A DNA stretch of 64,000 bases. It comes from Corallococcus sp. RDP092CA. Its GTDB lineage: Bacteria > Myxococcota > Myxococcia > Myxococcales > Myxococcaceae. Both the position numbers and the translations under genes were made by a program. Numbering within the stretch: the stretch's first letter is position 1; each line of letters starts with the position of its first letter. The notes below the pieces were generated by a model. The model had not been told where the DNA came from. It saw nothing but the letters and a program-made list of their open reading frames with translations, and ran no database searches. Shown one piece after another: positions 13,401-19,400 of the stretch. The stretch spans positions 224,643 through 288,642 of the forward strand of contig NZ_JAYESI010000001.1 in the NCBI RefSeq assembly GCF_041903675.1. Reading direction: 5' to 3'.

Positions 13401-16400
13401 GGGCCCGCGCCGCGCGCACGCAGGTGATGCGCGAGCTGGTTCGCGCGGGCATCGAGCTGCGCGTAGGTGAGGCGCTGGTCCTCGAACTGGAGCGCGATGG
13501 CCTCGGGCGCGTGTTTGGCCTGGGACTCGAAGAGCTGATGGAGCGTGGCGCCCCGGGGGAAGTCCGCGCGCGTGTCGTTCCAGCCGCGCAGCACCTGCTC
13601 ACGCGCGGTCGGCGTGAGCAGCGGCAGGGTGGTGACCGGCGCGTCCGGCTCGGCGACGACGGCCTTCGCCAGCATGGTCAGGTGCTCCGCCATGCGGGCC
13701 AGGGTCGCTGCGTCGAAGAGGGCGGTGGCGTACTCCAGGCGGCAGCGCAGGCCGTCGCGCTGCTCCCAGACCTCCAGCGTCAGGTCGAACTTGGACGTCG
13801 TCACCGGCACGTCCACGCCGCCAATCTGGAGCCCGGCGCCGCCGGTCGTCTGGGCCTCGGGCACGTTGATGACGTTGAGGATGACCTGGAACACCGGCGT
13901 GCGGCTCAGGTCGCGGGGCACCTGCAACACGTCCACCAGTTGCTCGAAGGGCATGTCCTGGTGCGCGTAGGCGCCCAGGGCCTGTTGCTTCACGCGACCG
14001 ATCAGCTCCCGGAAGCCCGGGGCCCCGTCGAGCTTCGCGCGGAAGGCGAGCGTGTTGACGAAGCAGCCCAGCAGGCTCTCCACCTCGGGCCGGGAGCGGC
14101 CCGCGATGGGCGTGCCCACCGCGAAGTCGTCCTGTCCGGAGGCGCGGGAGAGCACCACCTGGAACAGCGCCATCAGGACCATGAAGGACGTGGCGCCTTC
14201 ACGGCGACCCAGCGCGAGCAGGGGTTCGGACACCTCGCGGGGCAGGTGGAAGGAATGGGCGGCGCCCGCGTAGGACTGCGTGGCGGGGCGGGGATGGTCG
14301 GTGGGCAGCTCCAGCGGCGGCGCGCCCTGGAGCAGGTCCCTCCACCAGCGGGCCTGCTCCTCCAGCACCGGGCCGTGCAGCCACGCGCGCTGCCAGACGG
14401 CGTAGTCGGCGTACTGCACCGGGAGTGGCGGCAGGACGGACGGGACGCCCGTGGCGGCGCAGGCGTAGAGGACTGGCAGCTCGCGGCTGAGGACCAGGGC
14501 GCACCAGGCGTCGGAGACGACGTGGTGCAGGAGCAGGTGGAGGACGTGCGTGTCGGGCGCCAGCCGCAGCAGGAGCGCTCGGGCCACGGGACCGGTGCCC
14601 AGGTGGAAGGGCGTGGCGGTGTACGCCTGGCACCGGCGAAGCATGGCGGCCTCGCGCGCTTCGGCCGTGTCGCCGGGGACGTCTTCCGTCTCCAGTGGGA
14701 GGGAGCCGTTCGCGTGGATGACCTGCACGGCGCCGGTCTCGCCCAGCGCGTAGGTGGTGCGCAGGACCTCATGGCGTTCCACGAGCGCGTGGAGCGCCGT
14801 CTGGAGCGCGGTGACGTCCAGCGCTCCCGTGAGCCGGAAGATGATCGCGTTGTTGTAGGCGGTGCTCTCCGGCTCCAGCTCCTGGAGGTACCAGAGGCGC
14901 TGCTGCGCGAACGACAGCGGCAGCGGCCGGTCTCGCGGCGCACGTGGGATGGCACCGGTGGCCACGACAGCGGACACCGTCGATGCAGGCCGGACACCCG
15001 CGAGGGAGGCCGGGACAGCGGCAGGAGACGTCGAGTCCGGAGCCGCGGTTCGCGGGGTGACGGCAGGGCCCGTGCCCGCTGGCGCCGCCGAGGTCCCTGG
15101 GCGCACCGGTGCGTGCGGCGCTCCCGCCTGCCAGGTCGAGGCTGGAGCACTCGCCACATGCGGCGACGCGGGGCGCGGCGCGGACAGCTTGTCGCCCGGC
15201 AGGTTCACGGACTCGACGCGCCCATCCGCGCGCAGGCGCACGGGACGACCGGTGCGGTAGAGGCTCGCGGACGCGCTCCGCGGATGCGGCACCAGCTGGT
15301 GCGGTGTCTCGCCCGCCGCCCTCCAGAGCGACGCGGGGAGGCCCGCGCCCGACAGGGCCAGTTCACCCACTACGCCCGCGGGCACGGGCGCTCCGGCCGC
15401 GTCCAGCACCCAGACGTCCAAGCCCGGAGGCAGCGGCTCCCCCGGTGCACGCGGCAACAGCCCGCCGTCACGGGCCTCGCCCGCGAGCAACACGGCGCCG
15501 CCCGCGGTGCGCTGGAGCGCCGACGCCAGCTCCGCCGACGCGCTCTCCAGGACCCAGGCCCCCACCGGCGCCAGGGCCTCGCGCGCTCCCGGCAGGTCCG
15601 TCAGCGCACGGGCCAGCCGCGCCGTGGTGTTCACCAGCACCGCACCGGCCTGCCTCGCCAGGGCCAGCAGCTCCTCCGCGCCCGTCTCCTGCTCTCCGCG
15701 CACGCGCACCGCGGGTGACGCCGCGTCGGCGGCGAGGGCCTCGCGCACCCTGGCCAGGCGCCTCAGCCCTTCGAGGACGACCGGCGTCTCCAACCCGAAG
15801 TCGATGAGGCACGTCACCTCGTCCACGTCCGAGGCGCGCACGTCGCGCAGCCGCTGGAGGCCGCTCTCCACCGTGCCGATGAGGCCGGTGCCCTTCGCGT
15901 GGTGCTCGAAGGTGTGCTCCAGGAGCGCGTCGAGGTCCTCGCGGGACACCTTGGCGATCTCCCCCTGATACCCCTGCGCGGCGAGCAGCGACGTCGTGAT
16001 GTCCGCCGAGCTGCGGAAGTACGCCAGCAGCGGCGTGCGGACCTGCTGGAGGACCTCGGCCTCGTCGTCACCGAGGAACGTGTGCAGCATGCAGGTGATG
16101 TGGCCCCGGCCCGGGTGCCCGTTGCGGCGCCAGGCCTCGCGGTAGAGCGCCACCTTCGGCTTCAGCTCCTCCAGGGAGTGGGCGAAGAGGCCCGTGAGGA
16201 CGCCCGCGCCCAGCTCGCCCGCGAGCCGGAACGTCTCCGGGTTCGCGGTGGCGGTGAGCCACACGGGCAGCTCGCGTTGCACCGGCTTCGGGCGCAGGCC
16301 CACCTCTACGGTGACGCCGTTGCCGCCCGGGCGCCGCAGCCGCTCGCCGCGCCACAGGCCGCGCAGCGTCTCCAGGTGGCGCAGCAGGATGTTGCGCCGG

Positions 16401-19400
16401 TCCGCGTAGTTCCCCGGCGCGAAGATGAAGTCCTGCACATGCCAGCCGGTCGCCACGGACACGTCCACGCGGCCTTGCGACAGGTTGTCCACGACGGCCC
16501 ACTGCTCCGCCACGAGCAGCGGATCATGCAGCGGCAGCACGACGCTGCCGGAGCGCAGGCGCAGGTTCTTCGTGACGGACGCGAGCGCGGCGGAGACCAC
16601 CGCGGGCTGCGGGTAGATGCCGCCGAAGGAGTGGAAGTGCCGCTCGGGCGTCCAGATGGCGGAGAAGCCATTCGCGTCCGCGAACCTCGCGCCCTCCATC
16701 AACAGCTCGTACTTGGGCCCGGAGAGCGAGTCCTCGTCATTGGCGAAGTACGACAGGCTGAGCTGGAGCGGACGCGCGGCCTCCGCGTTCGAGGCGCTCC
16801 GGCGCGAGGAGGTGGCCTCGGACGGGAACAACACGCGCAGGCCGCGAGACAGCGCCCAGAGGGCTTCCAGCTCCGGCTTCTCGGGAGCGGGCTCGGAGGC
16901 GGCGAGCCAGGTGGTGCCCGGCGCCGGGCGCAGCCGGGCATCCAGCCCCGCGAAGAAGGCCGCGAGCGACGTGTGACTCAGGGCCCACGCGGGCTGCCCC
17001 GCCCCCATGGGCAGCAGCCACGCCAGGGAGTCCGGCGAGGACTGCGGCGGCGCGTCCGTCACAGGCGACGCGTCTCCCAACACCTCGTCGATGTGCAGGA
17101 CGCGAGAGGCCTCCAGGCGCGTGGATGTGAAGAGTCCCCGCCAGGTGACGAGCCGGGGCACGTCGCCGCCCTCCACGGCATAGACGGCCAGCGAGTCCAG
17201 GTCCGTGGGCCCGAGCGCCACCGGAGCACCACCGGCTTCCAGGACACCCCACAGCGCGGCCAGCTTCTCCGGCGACGCGCGCAGGCAGAGGGCCACGGGC
17301 TCACCGTGCCGGAGCCCGTGCTCGCGCAGCCGCGCGGCGAGCCGTCGCGCGCGCGAGGCCAGCTCCGCCCAGGTCCAGGTCCGGCCTGCCTGCTCCACGG
17401 CGACGGCGTCCGGATGCCGCAGGGCGTGTTCACGCAGCCGGACGGGCAGGACCGGCGCCTGCGTGACGTTCGGCGGAGCGGGCCAGACGCGGCGCTCGGC
17501 GTCGGTGGTGAGCGGCAGGCGGGAGAGGCGCTCCTCGGGCCGGGCCAGCGCCGCGGCGAGCAGCACCTGGAGGTGCTCCAGCATCCGCCGCGCGGTGGAC
17601 GCGTCGAACAGCTCCGTCGCGTACTCCAGCGCGCCGTGCACGCGGCCGGGCTCCTCGGTGAGGATGAGCGTCAGGTCGGACAGCGTGGCGCCCCACTGCA
17701 CTGGCGTGCCCGGCACTTCGATGAAGGTGCCCCGGGCCCCGACGGCGGCCAGCGCGTCGCCGCCCATCTCCAGGTTCGAGTGGTAGACGAACACGGTGTC
17801 CGTCATGCGCTCCCGGCCGATGTCCCGGCCCGGGATGAGCTGTTCGACGAGCAGCTCGAAGGGCACGTCCGGCCGGGACTGCACGTCGGTGACCTCGCGC
17901 CGCACGCGGTGCAGCAGCTCGCGGAAGCTCGGGTCGTCTCCGACGTGCGTGCGGAACGCGGCCGAGTGCGCCACGTAGCCGATGAGCGGCAGCAGCTCCG
18001 GCCGCGTGCGGTTGCCGATGGGCGTGCCGACGATGAGGTCCGTCTGGCCGGTGTAGCGGTGCAGGAGCGCGTTCCACGCGGCGAGCACCGTCATGTACGA
18101 CGTGAAGCCCTCGCCGCGCCCGAAGGCGACGAGCGCCTCGGCGAGCTCAGGAGGGAAGTCGAGCACCATGCGCTCGGAGGTGAGCAGGCAGCTCGTGGGC
18201 CGGGGCCGGTCCGTGGGGATTCCGAGCCGCCGGGGCATGCCGGCCAGGCGCTGGCGCCACCACGGGTCCTGCTCCGGGAAGCGCGCCTCCGCGAGCGACT
18301 GTCGCTGCCACGCGCCGAAGTCCGCGTACTGCACGGGCAGGGGGGCCAGCGGGGACGGCCTGCCCTGGAGGAAGGCGGCGTAGAGCTGGCCCACCTCCTG
18401 GAGGAAGAGGGACGTGGAGAGCGTGTCGCAGACGATGTGGTGGATGGCGCAGACCAGCAGGTGCAGGTCCGCGCGCAGGCGCACGAGCGTGGTGCGCAGC
18501 ACCGGCCCGCGCACGAGGTCGAAGGGGCGCGCGGCGTCCTCGCGGGCGAGGCGGAGGGCGGCCTCCTCGCGCTCGTCGGGCGTGCCCCCCACCTCCACGA
18601 TGGGGAGCGGGATGCGCACGTGCGGATGGAAGCGCTGCACGGGGCGGCCATCCACGGCGTCGTAGGTGGTGCGCAGGGCCTCGTGGCGCTGGACGACCTC
18701 CTGGATGGCGCGCTCCAGGATGGCGGCGTCGGCGGGGCCCTCCAGGCGCAGGACGAAGGGGATCGTATAGGCGGAGAGGCCGGGGAGGTGCTGCTCCAGG
18801 CGCCAGACGCGCTCCTGGACGATGGACAGGGGCAGCGGCTCCGTCCGGGGGCGGGGCACGAGCGGCAGCTCGCGCGTGGGCTCTTGCGCGGGGGCCTGCT
18901 GGAGCAGCGGCTCGATGCGCGAGGCAAGGCCCGCGACGGTGGGCGCTTCGAAGAGCGCGGCCAGCGGCACCTGGACGTGGAACGCGTCGCGGAGCTGGTT
19001 GAGGAGCTGCGCGGCCATCAGCGAGTTGCCGCCCAGCTCCAGGAAGTTGTCGTCGCGTCCGACGAAGTCCACCCCCAGGCGCTCACGCCACAGCGTGGCG
19101 ATGCGGACCTCGACGTCACCGCGAGGCGCGTCCTCACGGCCACCGGGGATGGAGAGGGCAGGGCGCTCAGCGGCCGGAGGTGTCGCCGTTGCTCCCATGC
19201 TTGGGAGCGAAGCGGAGGCCGGCCCCGTCATCGTGGCAGGCGGCGGCGCCAGCGTTGCTTCCACGCCGGGGAGCGAAGCGGGGGACGGCCCCGTCATTCT
19301 GGTCGGCGGAGGTGCCAGCGCCGCTCCCTCGTCCGGGAGCACGGGCGCCGCCACGTTGGAGGCGGACACAGCAGCAGTCGTTCGAGCACGGCTGTCCATG

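Follow-up and report, generated by a model that had tools for sequence, protein, structure and literature searches.

A carrier-less condensation-monooxygenase unit with a degraded adenylation domain follows a minimal PKS module in a Corallococcus NRPS/PKS

Module 6 of a large hybrid NRPS/PKS of Corallococcus sp. RDP092CA is composed of a condensation (C) domain and the remains of an adenylation (A) domain, which is split by a luciferase-like monooxygenase (LLM) and lacks a carrier (T) domain. Judging from the sequence and from analogy with characterised systems, this is probably not an elongation module but a cis-acting C-Ox tailoring unit, which would alpha-oxidise the beta-ketoacyl chain bound to the carrier of the preceding PKS module (ACP5) before the condensation catalysed by the C domain of module 7 (C7).

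The module is encoded within a single open reading frame (2066..35314, minus strand) of the window, i.e. the whole 64,000-nt stretch of DNA that was analysed. The frame is intact and specifies an 11,082-aa NRPS/PKS, of which the region 15190-18840 (-) corresponds to aa 5492-6709. The enzyme is an antibiotic-type assembly-line synthetase of a Corallococcus-like myxobacterium. Its domain content, established by Pfam searches and self-HMM mapping, comprises in order four C-A-T modules, KS-AT-ACP, C-A'(LLM)A', three further C-A-T modules and a terminal C-T-TE. In the minimal PKS module 5, the KS (21110..22246 (-); aa 4357-4735) and AT (19583..20491 (-); aa 4942-5244) are followed by the carrier domain ACP5 (18914..19105 (-); aa 5404-5467), which has a PCP-like GGNSL motif; the gap between the AT and the carrier is approximately 160 aa, leaving no space for a KR or DH. 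Module 6 begins with a remodelled condensation domain (C6; 17492..18835 (-); aa 5494-5941; Pfam E-value 2e-86) and continues with an A domain in two pieces: an N-terminal fragment of the A1-A4 region (16826..17425 (-); aa 5964-6163) and a C-terminal part (15206..15712 (-)), which includes the A4-A5 spacer, A6 and A7 and stops inside A8. The FMN-dependent LLM (TIGR04020/PF00296; 15713..16744 (-)) is inserted between them. A hypervariable, disordered linker rich in Ala, Pro and Ser (14924..15205 (-)) leads directly into C7 (13592..14923 (-); aa 6798-7241), so that two C domains occur in a row, as the earlier note had stated; the linker is 94 aa long rather than the approximately 80 aa given there. 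The intact A7 (Ser-like code DVWHMSLVDK) and T7 (11795..13531 (-)) constitute the acceptor for C7, and ACP5 is the sole carrier open to C6, the LLM and the C7 donor site.

The A motifs of module 6 were read by alignment to working A domains from elsewhere in this synthetase and to full-length C-A(LLM)-T homologues. At A3, the remnant carries LAWLLPMGA--GQPAWAL where functional A domains have LAYVIYTSGSTGRPKG. This destroyed P-loop (SPDSLAWLLPMGAGQPAWALSH; nt 16973-17038 (-)) lies within the N-terminal fragment, and the pattern (S/T)GT(T/S)GxPKG is not present in the module-6 remnant, which has LPMGA--GQPAWAL instead. Motif A4 (FDxS) is no longer present, A5 (NxYGPTE) has been deleted, A6 survives in part (GELALSGAGLP), A7 reads YRTGR (nt 15245-15259), the Asp of Y(R/K)TGD being gone, the A8 hinge is truncated, and A9 and A10, including the A10 catalytic Lys, are missing. 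The Pfam AMP-binding match covers profile positions 2-100 only (aa 5961-6065), with a weak tail match to positions 342-379 (E 0.0037). Intact A motifs occur in none of 62 related cassettes, and A3 and A5 are kept in 64 of 65 intact C-A(LLM)-T homologues. With the core motifs gone both here and in 62/62 cassettes, the module-6 A domain is predicted to be unable to adenylate, in agreement with the earlier note. Its account of a C domain (HHIVCD) followed by an A remnant with neither P-loop nor A8 and A10 also holds, HMM annotation (PF00296 and PF00501-type AMP-binding) having confirmed the domain content and the alignment the P-loop loss; of its "degenerate" A5/A6, A5 requires correction, being deleted outright, and A6 is partly kept.

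The remnant is not drifting, as its dN/dS (0.12-0.26) is lower than that of the linker (0.3-0.6). AlphaFold2 prediction gave a pLDDT of 85-97 for the N-terminal fragment; both fragments fold confidently and jointly align to an A-core (6EA3; target-normalised TM-score (TMt) 0.71), although the input alignment contained mostly intact A domains and may have biased this result. A model in which the two pieces make up an A-core bearing the LLM as an inserted domain, followed by the disordered linker, fits a scaffold role. The N-terminal fragment is wholly deleted in four related loci (L071-L074), which, together with the existence of stand-alone C-LLM proteins, indicates that the scaffold is dispensable in principle. 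The idea that the A domain has been retained as a scaffold is consistent with selection and modelling, with the proviso that such a scaffold is not a necessity.

The LLM itself is intact, as its description in the earlier note had suggested. The Bac_luciferase (PF00296) match spans aa 6191-6497 (E 1e-50), the family match reaches aa 6534, and TIGR04020 is matched over model positions 1-341 of 341 with 492.2 bits (cut-off 244.45). TIGR04020 represents the MupA/Atu3671 FMN-dependent luciferase-like monooxygenases, a natural-product LLM domain. All 44 invariant columns of the LLM region in a 76-sequence family alignment are retained, dN/dS is 0.06-0.13, and the model superposes on PuwE Ox (6KET) with a TMt of 0.91-0.93 (46% identity, E 4e-103). 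The fold and the family-invariant residues are therefore kept, and flavin binding is predicted. No flavin reductase gene is encoded nearby. The A4-A5 position of the insertion is shared with the intact homologues included in the alignment.

The absence of a T domain was likewise upheld. With every filter disabled, a T-domain HMM scored -0.4 bits in aa 6498-6800, where no GxxS motif was found either, and a Pfam search of aa 6700-6800 returned no match, PP-binding included, even at E<=10. The linker (aa 6707-6800) is predicted to be disordered (AlphaFold2 pLDDT <50). A T domain after the LLM was seen in 0 of 78 related loci, wherever the flanking context was available.

C6 retains the His-His-Asp residues of the canonical HHxxxDG(W)S motif, but its sequence is HHIVCDTLS (nt 18416-18442 (-); HHIVCD at aa 5625), with DGWS replaced by DTLS, and its C5 core is altered to GYVAHS (canonical GxFVNT), with FVNT replaced by VAH(S/A). 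Each of these changes is found in at least 90% of the C6 clade, and of the 119 nearest homologues only those belonging to cassettes have DTLS. C6 is under strong purifying selection (dN/dS 0.10-0.18), and the C6 sequences form a monophyletic clade, whose sister group is made up of C domains from intact Streptomyces/Kitasatospora proteins. C7 carries canonical motifs (HHVVSDAWC and GCFVNTL) and is placed within a cassette-specific C clade. Since there is no acceptor carrier, C6 should be unable to condense in the normal way. It had been proposed that one of the two C domains may be non-catalytic; C7, canonical and equipped with its own A-T, does not fit this description, and in C6 the combination of strong conservation and an altered active site is more suggestive of a new function than of a loss.

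The 78 related loci, where context is available, share the arrangement T-KS-AT-ACP-C-(A')-LLM-(A')-C-A-T. They are distributed among Myxococcaceae, Archangiaceae, Polyangiaceae and Micromonosporaceae and among several BGC families, and within the cassette conservation is highest in C6 and the LLM (25-37% invariant columns, dN/dS 0.06-0.18). A minimal KS-AT-ACP stands directly upstream in every locus with context, and units that form a separate protein (L079) or are split (L080) are still associated with one. The downstream A code differs widely among loci (Ser-like, Val-like, Asp-like and aromatic-like). With flanking A domains that differ in specificity code from locus to locus, the cassette has its constant partner in the PKS unit. 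By sequence, the cassette appears to be descended from complete C-A(LLM)-T modules that have since lost adenylation and the carrier. One stand-alone C-LLM protein (P0243) is placed outside the C6 clade, so C-Ox units may have more than one origin.

The most likely substrate of the LLM is the PKS-derived methylene; this substrate, the regiochemistry and the succession of steps are inferred, as follows. Module 5, which has no KR, would add malonate to the peptidyl chain, and ACP5 would present the resulting gamma-amino-beta-ketoacyl thioester to the C6-LLM unit. The LLM, using O2 and FMNH2 supplied by a free flavin reductase, would hydroxylate the activated C2 methylene and possibly oxidise the hydroxyl further to a ketone. 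C6, as its conserved but altered active site suggests, may dock ACP5 and position or enolise the substrate, or catalyse follow-up C-C chemistry, and the dead A pieces would keep C6 and the LLM apart as a folded spacer. C7 would then take the oxidised acyl-S-ACP5 as donor and form the next amide bond with the Ser-like unit on A7-T7. Against this scheme, ACP5 must reach a C7 donor site located about 1,300 residues downstream. Related myxobacterial products, such as myxoprincomide and the jahnellamides, contain one-carbon-homologated alpha-keto-beta-amino acids; if the product of this synthetase does so too, C-C cleavage would follow the oxidation. The myxoprincomide synthetase, MXAN_3779, was reportedly described by Cortina and co-workers in Angew. 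Chem. in 2012, and the jahnellamide pathway is said to have been reported by Plaza and co-workers in Org. Lett. in 2013; the C-Ox unit of module 6 is presumably comparable to that of MXAN_3779.

Such a loss of one carbon would also be explained by a Baeyer-Villiger-type reaction, in which the LLM inserts oxygen beside the beta-ketone or into an alpha,beta-dicarbonyl to give an ester or anhydride-like intermediate, resolved by C6 or C7. The presence of two specialised C domains suggests more than a simple hydroxylation, and the LLM model is structurally related to LLM-fold type II enzymes of the 3,6-diketocamphane monooxygenase type (TMt ~0.72). The latter, however, are only 16-18% identical to it, against 46% for PuwE Ox, and the characterised relatives hydroxylate, so that we regard this reaction as unlikely. 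The MOx domains of MtaG and MelG (myxothiazol and melithiazol) hydroxylate the alpha carbon of a carrier-bound glycine, which leads to the release of a terminal amide, and the LLM might by analogy attack an aminoacyl or peptidyl thioester on T7 or another T domain instead of the methylene on ACP5. The ancestry of the cassette in C-A(LLM)-T modules and the sister position of the C6 clade to the C domains of the intact Streptomyces/Kitasatospora proteins agree with this, but it is the upstream KS-AT-ACP that is invariant and the downstream A code that varies, and the stand-alone and split versions remain beside KS-AT-ACP. Moreover, alpha-hydroxylation of an N-acyl amino acid inside the chain would lead to its cleavage, which is at odds with the three further modules and the TE that come after; a substrate of this kind is quite improbable.

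Module 6 could also be a decaying relic, skipped and without function, with ACP5 passing the chain straight to C7. In favour of this stand the dead A domain, the missing T domain and the loss of further parts in some lineages. In contrast, the reading frame of 11,082 aa is uninterrupted, conservation peaks in C6 and the LLM, and the unit has been retained throughout the 78 loci of four families and several BGC families, which makes a relic very hard to credit. Oxidation of the ACP5-bound beta-ketoacyl chain, as the earlier note had proposed, is thus the reading that draws support from comparison (invariant KS-AT-ACP, variable A codes) and from the precedents of PuwE and MxgE.

MxgE is a C-Ox didomain protein of myxoglucamide biosynthesis in Cystobacterineae sp. 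MCy9003; mutations in its Ox domain removed the alpha-hydroxy/alpha-keto group, and C-domain mutations abolished production (PMC13638107). Compared by description, MxgE resembles module 6 in that a C-type domain lies N-terminal to an FMN monooxygenase, A activity and a carrier are both lacking, and the partner is a single PKS module elongating an amino acid. It differs in being a separate protein with no A remnants, in the KR, DH and E domains of the PKS module that it is paired with, and in its C motif, which is HPxxxD as against HHxxxDTLS in module 6; the comparison with MxgE (GenBank OR000721) is one of architecture. Given the position of P0243, MxgE is perhaps not a close relative. PuwE Ox of the puwainaphycin PKS/NRPS (PDB 6KET), for which 2-hydroxylation of a PKS-extended acyl chain has been proposed (PMC4219810), is, among solved structures, the nearest relative of the LLM; it also stands in cis behind a non-reducing PKS module, but has an aminotransferase partner, no dedicated preceding C domain and no A remnants. 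The PuwE product is a 3-amino-2-hydroxy fatty acyl unit.

Modules of the MtaG/MelG type and the C-A(LLM)-T proteins, which are widespread and approximately 1,470 aa long, share with module 6 the LLM subfamily (TIGR04020) and the A4-A5 insertion, and sequence comparison points to them as the evolutionary source of the cassette. In MtaG itself the LLM is inserted between A4 and A5. Both have a functional A domain of the glycine type together with a PCP of their own, and modules of the MtaG/MelG type stand at the chain end with a TE, whereas module 6 has no A activity, PCP or TE there and is followed by three further modules before the TE. The stated difference from the C-A(MOx)-PCP-TE modules is therefore real, but with MxgE and PuwE as precedents the layout is not unprecedented: it is real and widely conserved but belongs to a known kind, of which it is a good example, and its novelty is modest. 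M. xanthus has two cassette loci, one of which (L055) has a Val-code A domain upstream. The cassette of the window belongs to a Corallococcus group and is only about 45% identical to the Myxococcus/Pyxidicoccus group that includes the M. xanthus loci; this identity and the different flanking A codes indicate a BGC family other than the Myxococcus/Pyxidicoccus one.

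The unit under study lies in a single uninterrupted NRPS/PKS reading frame of 11,082 aa (window 2066..35314, minus strand; ~72% G+C), whose domains were mapped with Pfam and with HMMs made from the protein's own domains. Four C-A-T modules in its N-terminal part are followed by a minimal PKS module, KS-AT-ACP (aa 4357-5467), and then, on the same strand, by the condensation domain C6 (aa 5494-5941), a first A fragment (aa 5964-6163), a luciferase-like FMN-dependent monooxygenase domain (LLM; aa 6191-6497), a second A fragment (aa 6615-6703) and an Ala/Pro/Ser-rich linker to C7 (aa 6704-6797); three C-A-T modules and a final C-T-TE make up the C-terminal part. 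Module 6, placed at window 15190-18840 in the earlier note, corresponds to aa 5492-6709, and the specific claims made about it there were all borne out by alignment, HMM and AlphaFold2 checks, the wording on one A core apart. The last module (window 2069-4396, minus strand, aa 10307-11082) lacks an A domain, which leaves its carrier to be loaded either in trans or by an A domain next to it. In module 9, an insert of ~315 aa (window 5792-6386 and 6597-6732, minus strand, aa 9527-9842) splits the A domain immediately ahead of A3. It consists of 57-nt (19-aa) tandem repeats, EPVGQSDRF being an example of a unit, in 10 copies or more; this insert has no Pfam match, and related loci carry inserts of differing length near the same point.

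The adenylation motifs of module 6 were aligned with those of four full-length C-A(LLM)-T homologues and of two functional A domains from elsewhere in the protein. The A3 P-loop, reported as lost, is indeed replaced by LAWLLPMGA--GQPAWAL; FDxS of A4 is lost, A7 (YRTGR) lacks the ribose-binding Asp, and the remnant stops inside A8, with A9, A10 and the T domain absent, in agreement with the claim that A8 and A10 are missing. A5 and A6 had been described as degenerate, which fits the half-kept A6; A5 (NxYGPTE) is in fact deleted. The remnant does not qualify as a working A domain, nor module 6 as a canonical C-A-T module. An intact A3, A5, A7, A8 or A10 occurs in none of 62 cassettes of this type, whereas A3 and A5 are present in 64 of the 65 full-length C-A(LLM)-T proteins (and in 7/7 other A domains of the 11,082-aa protein); the loss of A function is therefore ancient and fixed, and a sequencing or assembly artefact confined to this genome is ruled out. 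The dead domain is itself constrained, since dN/dS among close Corallococcus orthologues is 0.12-0.26 in its fragments vs. 0.3-0.6 in the linker. In the AlphaFold2 model (mean pLDDT 82) the two pieces make up one A-core that carries the LLM as an insertion, although the input alignment was rich in intact A domains, a possible bias.

The absence of a T domain from module 6 was confirmed. Between the LLM and C7 there is no Pfam match for a hidden carrier at E<=10, a T-domain HMM run with filters off gives -0.4 bits, no GxxS motif is found, and the linker is modelled with pLDDT <50, which together rule out such a domain in the C6-C7 interval. No trans-acting carrier is encoded nearby, as every T-domain match falls within the two assembly lines of the window. 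The neighbouring ORFs encode a GFO/IDH/MocA oxidoreductase, a 2OG oxygenase, an AhpC-like protein, a CMD-family protein and a carbonic anhydrase, and no flavin reductase was found among them; the reductase partners of two-component LLMs are usually not encoded alongside.

The LLM, described as intact-looking in the earlier note, is intact in sequence and modelled fold. It matches PF00296 (E 1e-50), belongs to the TIGR04020 family (492 bits; cut-off 244) and keeps all 44 family-invariant columns of the LLM region, and its model fits the solved PuwE Ox domain (6KET; 46% identity) with a target-normalised TM-score of 0.91-0.93. It is inserted between A4 and A5, matching its position in intact C-A(LLM)-T homologues, and its dN/dS among close Corallococcus orthologues is 0.06-0.13.

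The two consecutive C domains fall into different clades of a neighbour-joining tree (no bootstrap). One clade unites the C6 domains of every locus, and its sister group is made up of C domains from intact Streptomyces/Kitasatospora C-A(LLM)-T proteins; the other comprises the C7 domains and is separate from the remaining, ordinary C domains of this synthetase. C7 is canonical (HHxxxD(G/A)W(S/C) and GCFxNTL) and has its own A7-T7. C6 (dN/dS 0.09-0.18 in the same orthologues) keeps His-His-Asp and carries two clade-invariant changes: DTLS stands in place of the DGWS of HHxxxDGWS and, with the gain of a conserved His, G(Y/F)VAH(S/A) in place of the C5 core GxFVNT. DTLS occurs in only two of the 119 nearest C-domain homologues from the protein database, both of them cassette members. 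Because His-His-Asp is kept and the active-site changes are clade-invariant, with DTLS confined to cassette members in that set, C6 looks repurposed next to the oxygenase, not decayed. The sole MxgE-like stand-alone C-LLM protein found (P0243) falls outside the C6 clade.

A scan with one genome per species identified 78 loci in Corallococcus (best 84% identity, which marks the window as Corallococcus-like), Myxococcus, Pyxidicoccus, Archangium, Cystobacter, Citreicoccus, Polyangiaceae, Kofleriaceae and Micromonosporaceae. At every locus with enough flanking sequence the order is T-KS-AT-ACP-C-(A')-LLM-(A')-C-A-T, the preceding PKS module is minimal, and the LLM is never followed by a T domain before the next C. 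Read against a GrsA reference sequence, the specificity codes of the flanking A domains vary between locus groups, and the cassettes sit in several BGC families. Several genomes carry many paralogues of the cassette: single genomes such as those of C. terminator (L009, L018-L020, L035 and L038) and C. sicarius (L006, L014, L016, L017 and L063) have five or six, in different assembly lines. Given these paralogues and the varying flanking codes, the unit looks like a cassette recurring beside different modules. Invariant columns amount to 25-37% in C6, LLM and C7 and 6-16% in the A fragments, and the linker is hypervariable. Between window 13592-18835 and eight related loci (L001-L007 and L039), dS is ~0.2 in C6, LLM and C7 vs. 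0.3-0.6 in the dead A fragments. Codon constraints, or gene conversion between the many paralogous cassettes, could account for this unevenness. Two loci labelled Comamonas sp. KCTC 72670 (L036, BNCN01000013.1; L058, BNCN01000024.1) carry myxobacterial-type cassettes 62 and 45% identical to that of the window; this assembly is probably mislabelled or contaminated.

Some relatives are reduced further. In L071-L074 the entire N-terminal A fragment is deleted, so that a linker of 28-58 aa joins C to the LLM and A6-A8 survives only as a vestige. In the metagenomic locus L080 (5452-12865) the unit is divided between one protein with KS-AT-ACP-C and another with LLM-C, and a short-chain dehydrogenase gene comes after them. 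In the metagenomic locus L079 (532-6271) a minimal KS-AT-ACP gene is immediately preceded by a gene for a stand-alone C-LLM protein, whose C motif reads HHIVVDFLS. A reduction series thus runs from complete C-A(LLM)-T through C-A'(LLM)A' to C-LLM, and the A remnant is not indispensable as a scaffold for the LLM.

The best-supported reading, drawn from sequence and analogy, is that C6-LLM is a cis C-Ox tailoring unit. The KS-AT-ACP module would build a beta-ketoacyl chain on its carrier, ACP5, C6-LLM would oxidise the chain held there, and C7 would join the product to the residue on T7. The PKS-derived chain is favoured as the LLM substrate because the KR-less PKS partner is invariant whatever the covalent arrangement, because the downstream residue varies, and because there are three precedents in which the LLM subfamily hydroxylates, or is proposed to hydroxylate, the alpha carbon of carrier-bound thioesters. 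Action on the residue bound to T7 is disfavoured, as that residue differs between loci and an internal residue hydroxylated at its alpha carbon would lead to chain cleavage. Less likely than the main reading, too, is a Baeyer-Villiger role, which only distant LLM relatives (16-18% identity) suggest. The idea that module 6 is a relic without function is contradicted by how strongly C6 and the LLM are constrained and by how far the cassette is conserved between families.

If C6-LLM hydroxylates the ACP5-bound chain, both malonate carbons may stay, giving the 2-hydroxy or 2-oxo-3-oxo unit proposed in the earlier note. [quoted passage not shown] Myxoprincomide (2-oxo-beta-leucine) and the jahnellamides (alpha-keto-beta-methionine), which we take to come from assembly lines with this module type, are of this second kind. 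A bolder scheme, put forward tentatively and rather unlikely in our estimate, makes C6 a neofunctionalised condensation domain (HHxxxDTLS; new invariant His in GYVAH) that works with the LLM to excise one carbon oxidatively while the chain is on the PKS carrier, so that a gamma-amino-beta-ketoacyl thioester becomes an alpha-keto-beta-aminoacyl donor; KS-AT-ACP-C*-LLM-C would then be a portable, sequence-recognisable "alpha-ketoamide warhead installer" acting behind at least five amino-acid specificities in myxobacteria and some actinobacteria. A literature search gave no match for 2-oxo-beta-leucine or alpha-keto-beta-methionine, and no mechanism came from papers on Entotheonella and sponge peptides; the spliceotide (RiPP) route to alpha-keto-beta-amino acids was set aside as unrelated chemistry. 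M. xanthus has two cassette loci, one (L055) behind a Val-code A domain, consistent with such an origin of myxoprincomide. The window cassette is only ~45% identical to this probable myxoprincomide group and belongs to a Corallococcus group with different neighbours.

Among characterised systems, the module 6 unit would work like MxgE and PuwE and appears to descend from MtaG-type modules, in which the LLM subfamily hydroxylates the alpha carbon of carrier-bound glycine. It has the C-Ox architecture of MxgE and not that of the MtaG/MelG terminal-amide module. PuwE Ox was proposed to act on a PKS-extended acyl chain (PMC4219810). The alpha-hydroxy/alpha-keto group of a PKS-derived gamma-amino acid is lost when the Ox domain of MxgE is mutated, and mutating its C domain stops production (PMC13638107). 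The C-Ox kind of unit is already known and the window's cassette is another member; what this analysis adds is a set of C6 signatures, a reduction series and a broad distribution, with a conserved unit standing beside differing modules. Alpha-hydroxy, alpha-keto and alpha-ketoamide units are protease-inhibitor warheads, and a compact in-line cassette installing them after any amino acid would serve genome mining and assembly-line engineering. The signatures for mining are the dead A3 LAWLLPxGAGQPAW, HHxxxDTLS and GYVAH of C6, and the missing T domain.

A second, separate hybrid PKS/NRPS cluster (window 42558-59160, plus strand) encodes three proteins: KS-AT-DH-ACP, in which AT is matched twice; KS-ACP, in which only a fragment of the AT is left (Pfam positions 67-134 of 319); and KS-AT-DH-ACP-C-A-T-TE. 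The corramycin BGC was ruled out as the identity of the window, as its FAAL, FkbH-like HAD domain, MT and KR do not match. An ORF at window 38040-39737 (plus strand) encodes a 2OG-Fe(II) oxygenase; a weak GntR-like match at its N terminus may mean that the ORF was called too long. Since modules 2 and 8 of the 11,082-aa synthetase have Val codes, and beta-hydroxyvaline of unknown origin is reported in myxoprincomide and corramycin (PMC10099666), this oxygenase is a candidate hydroxylase.
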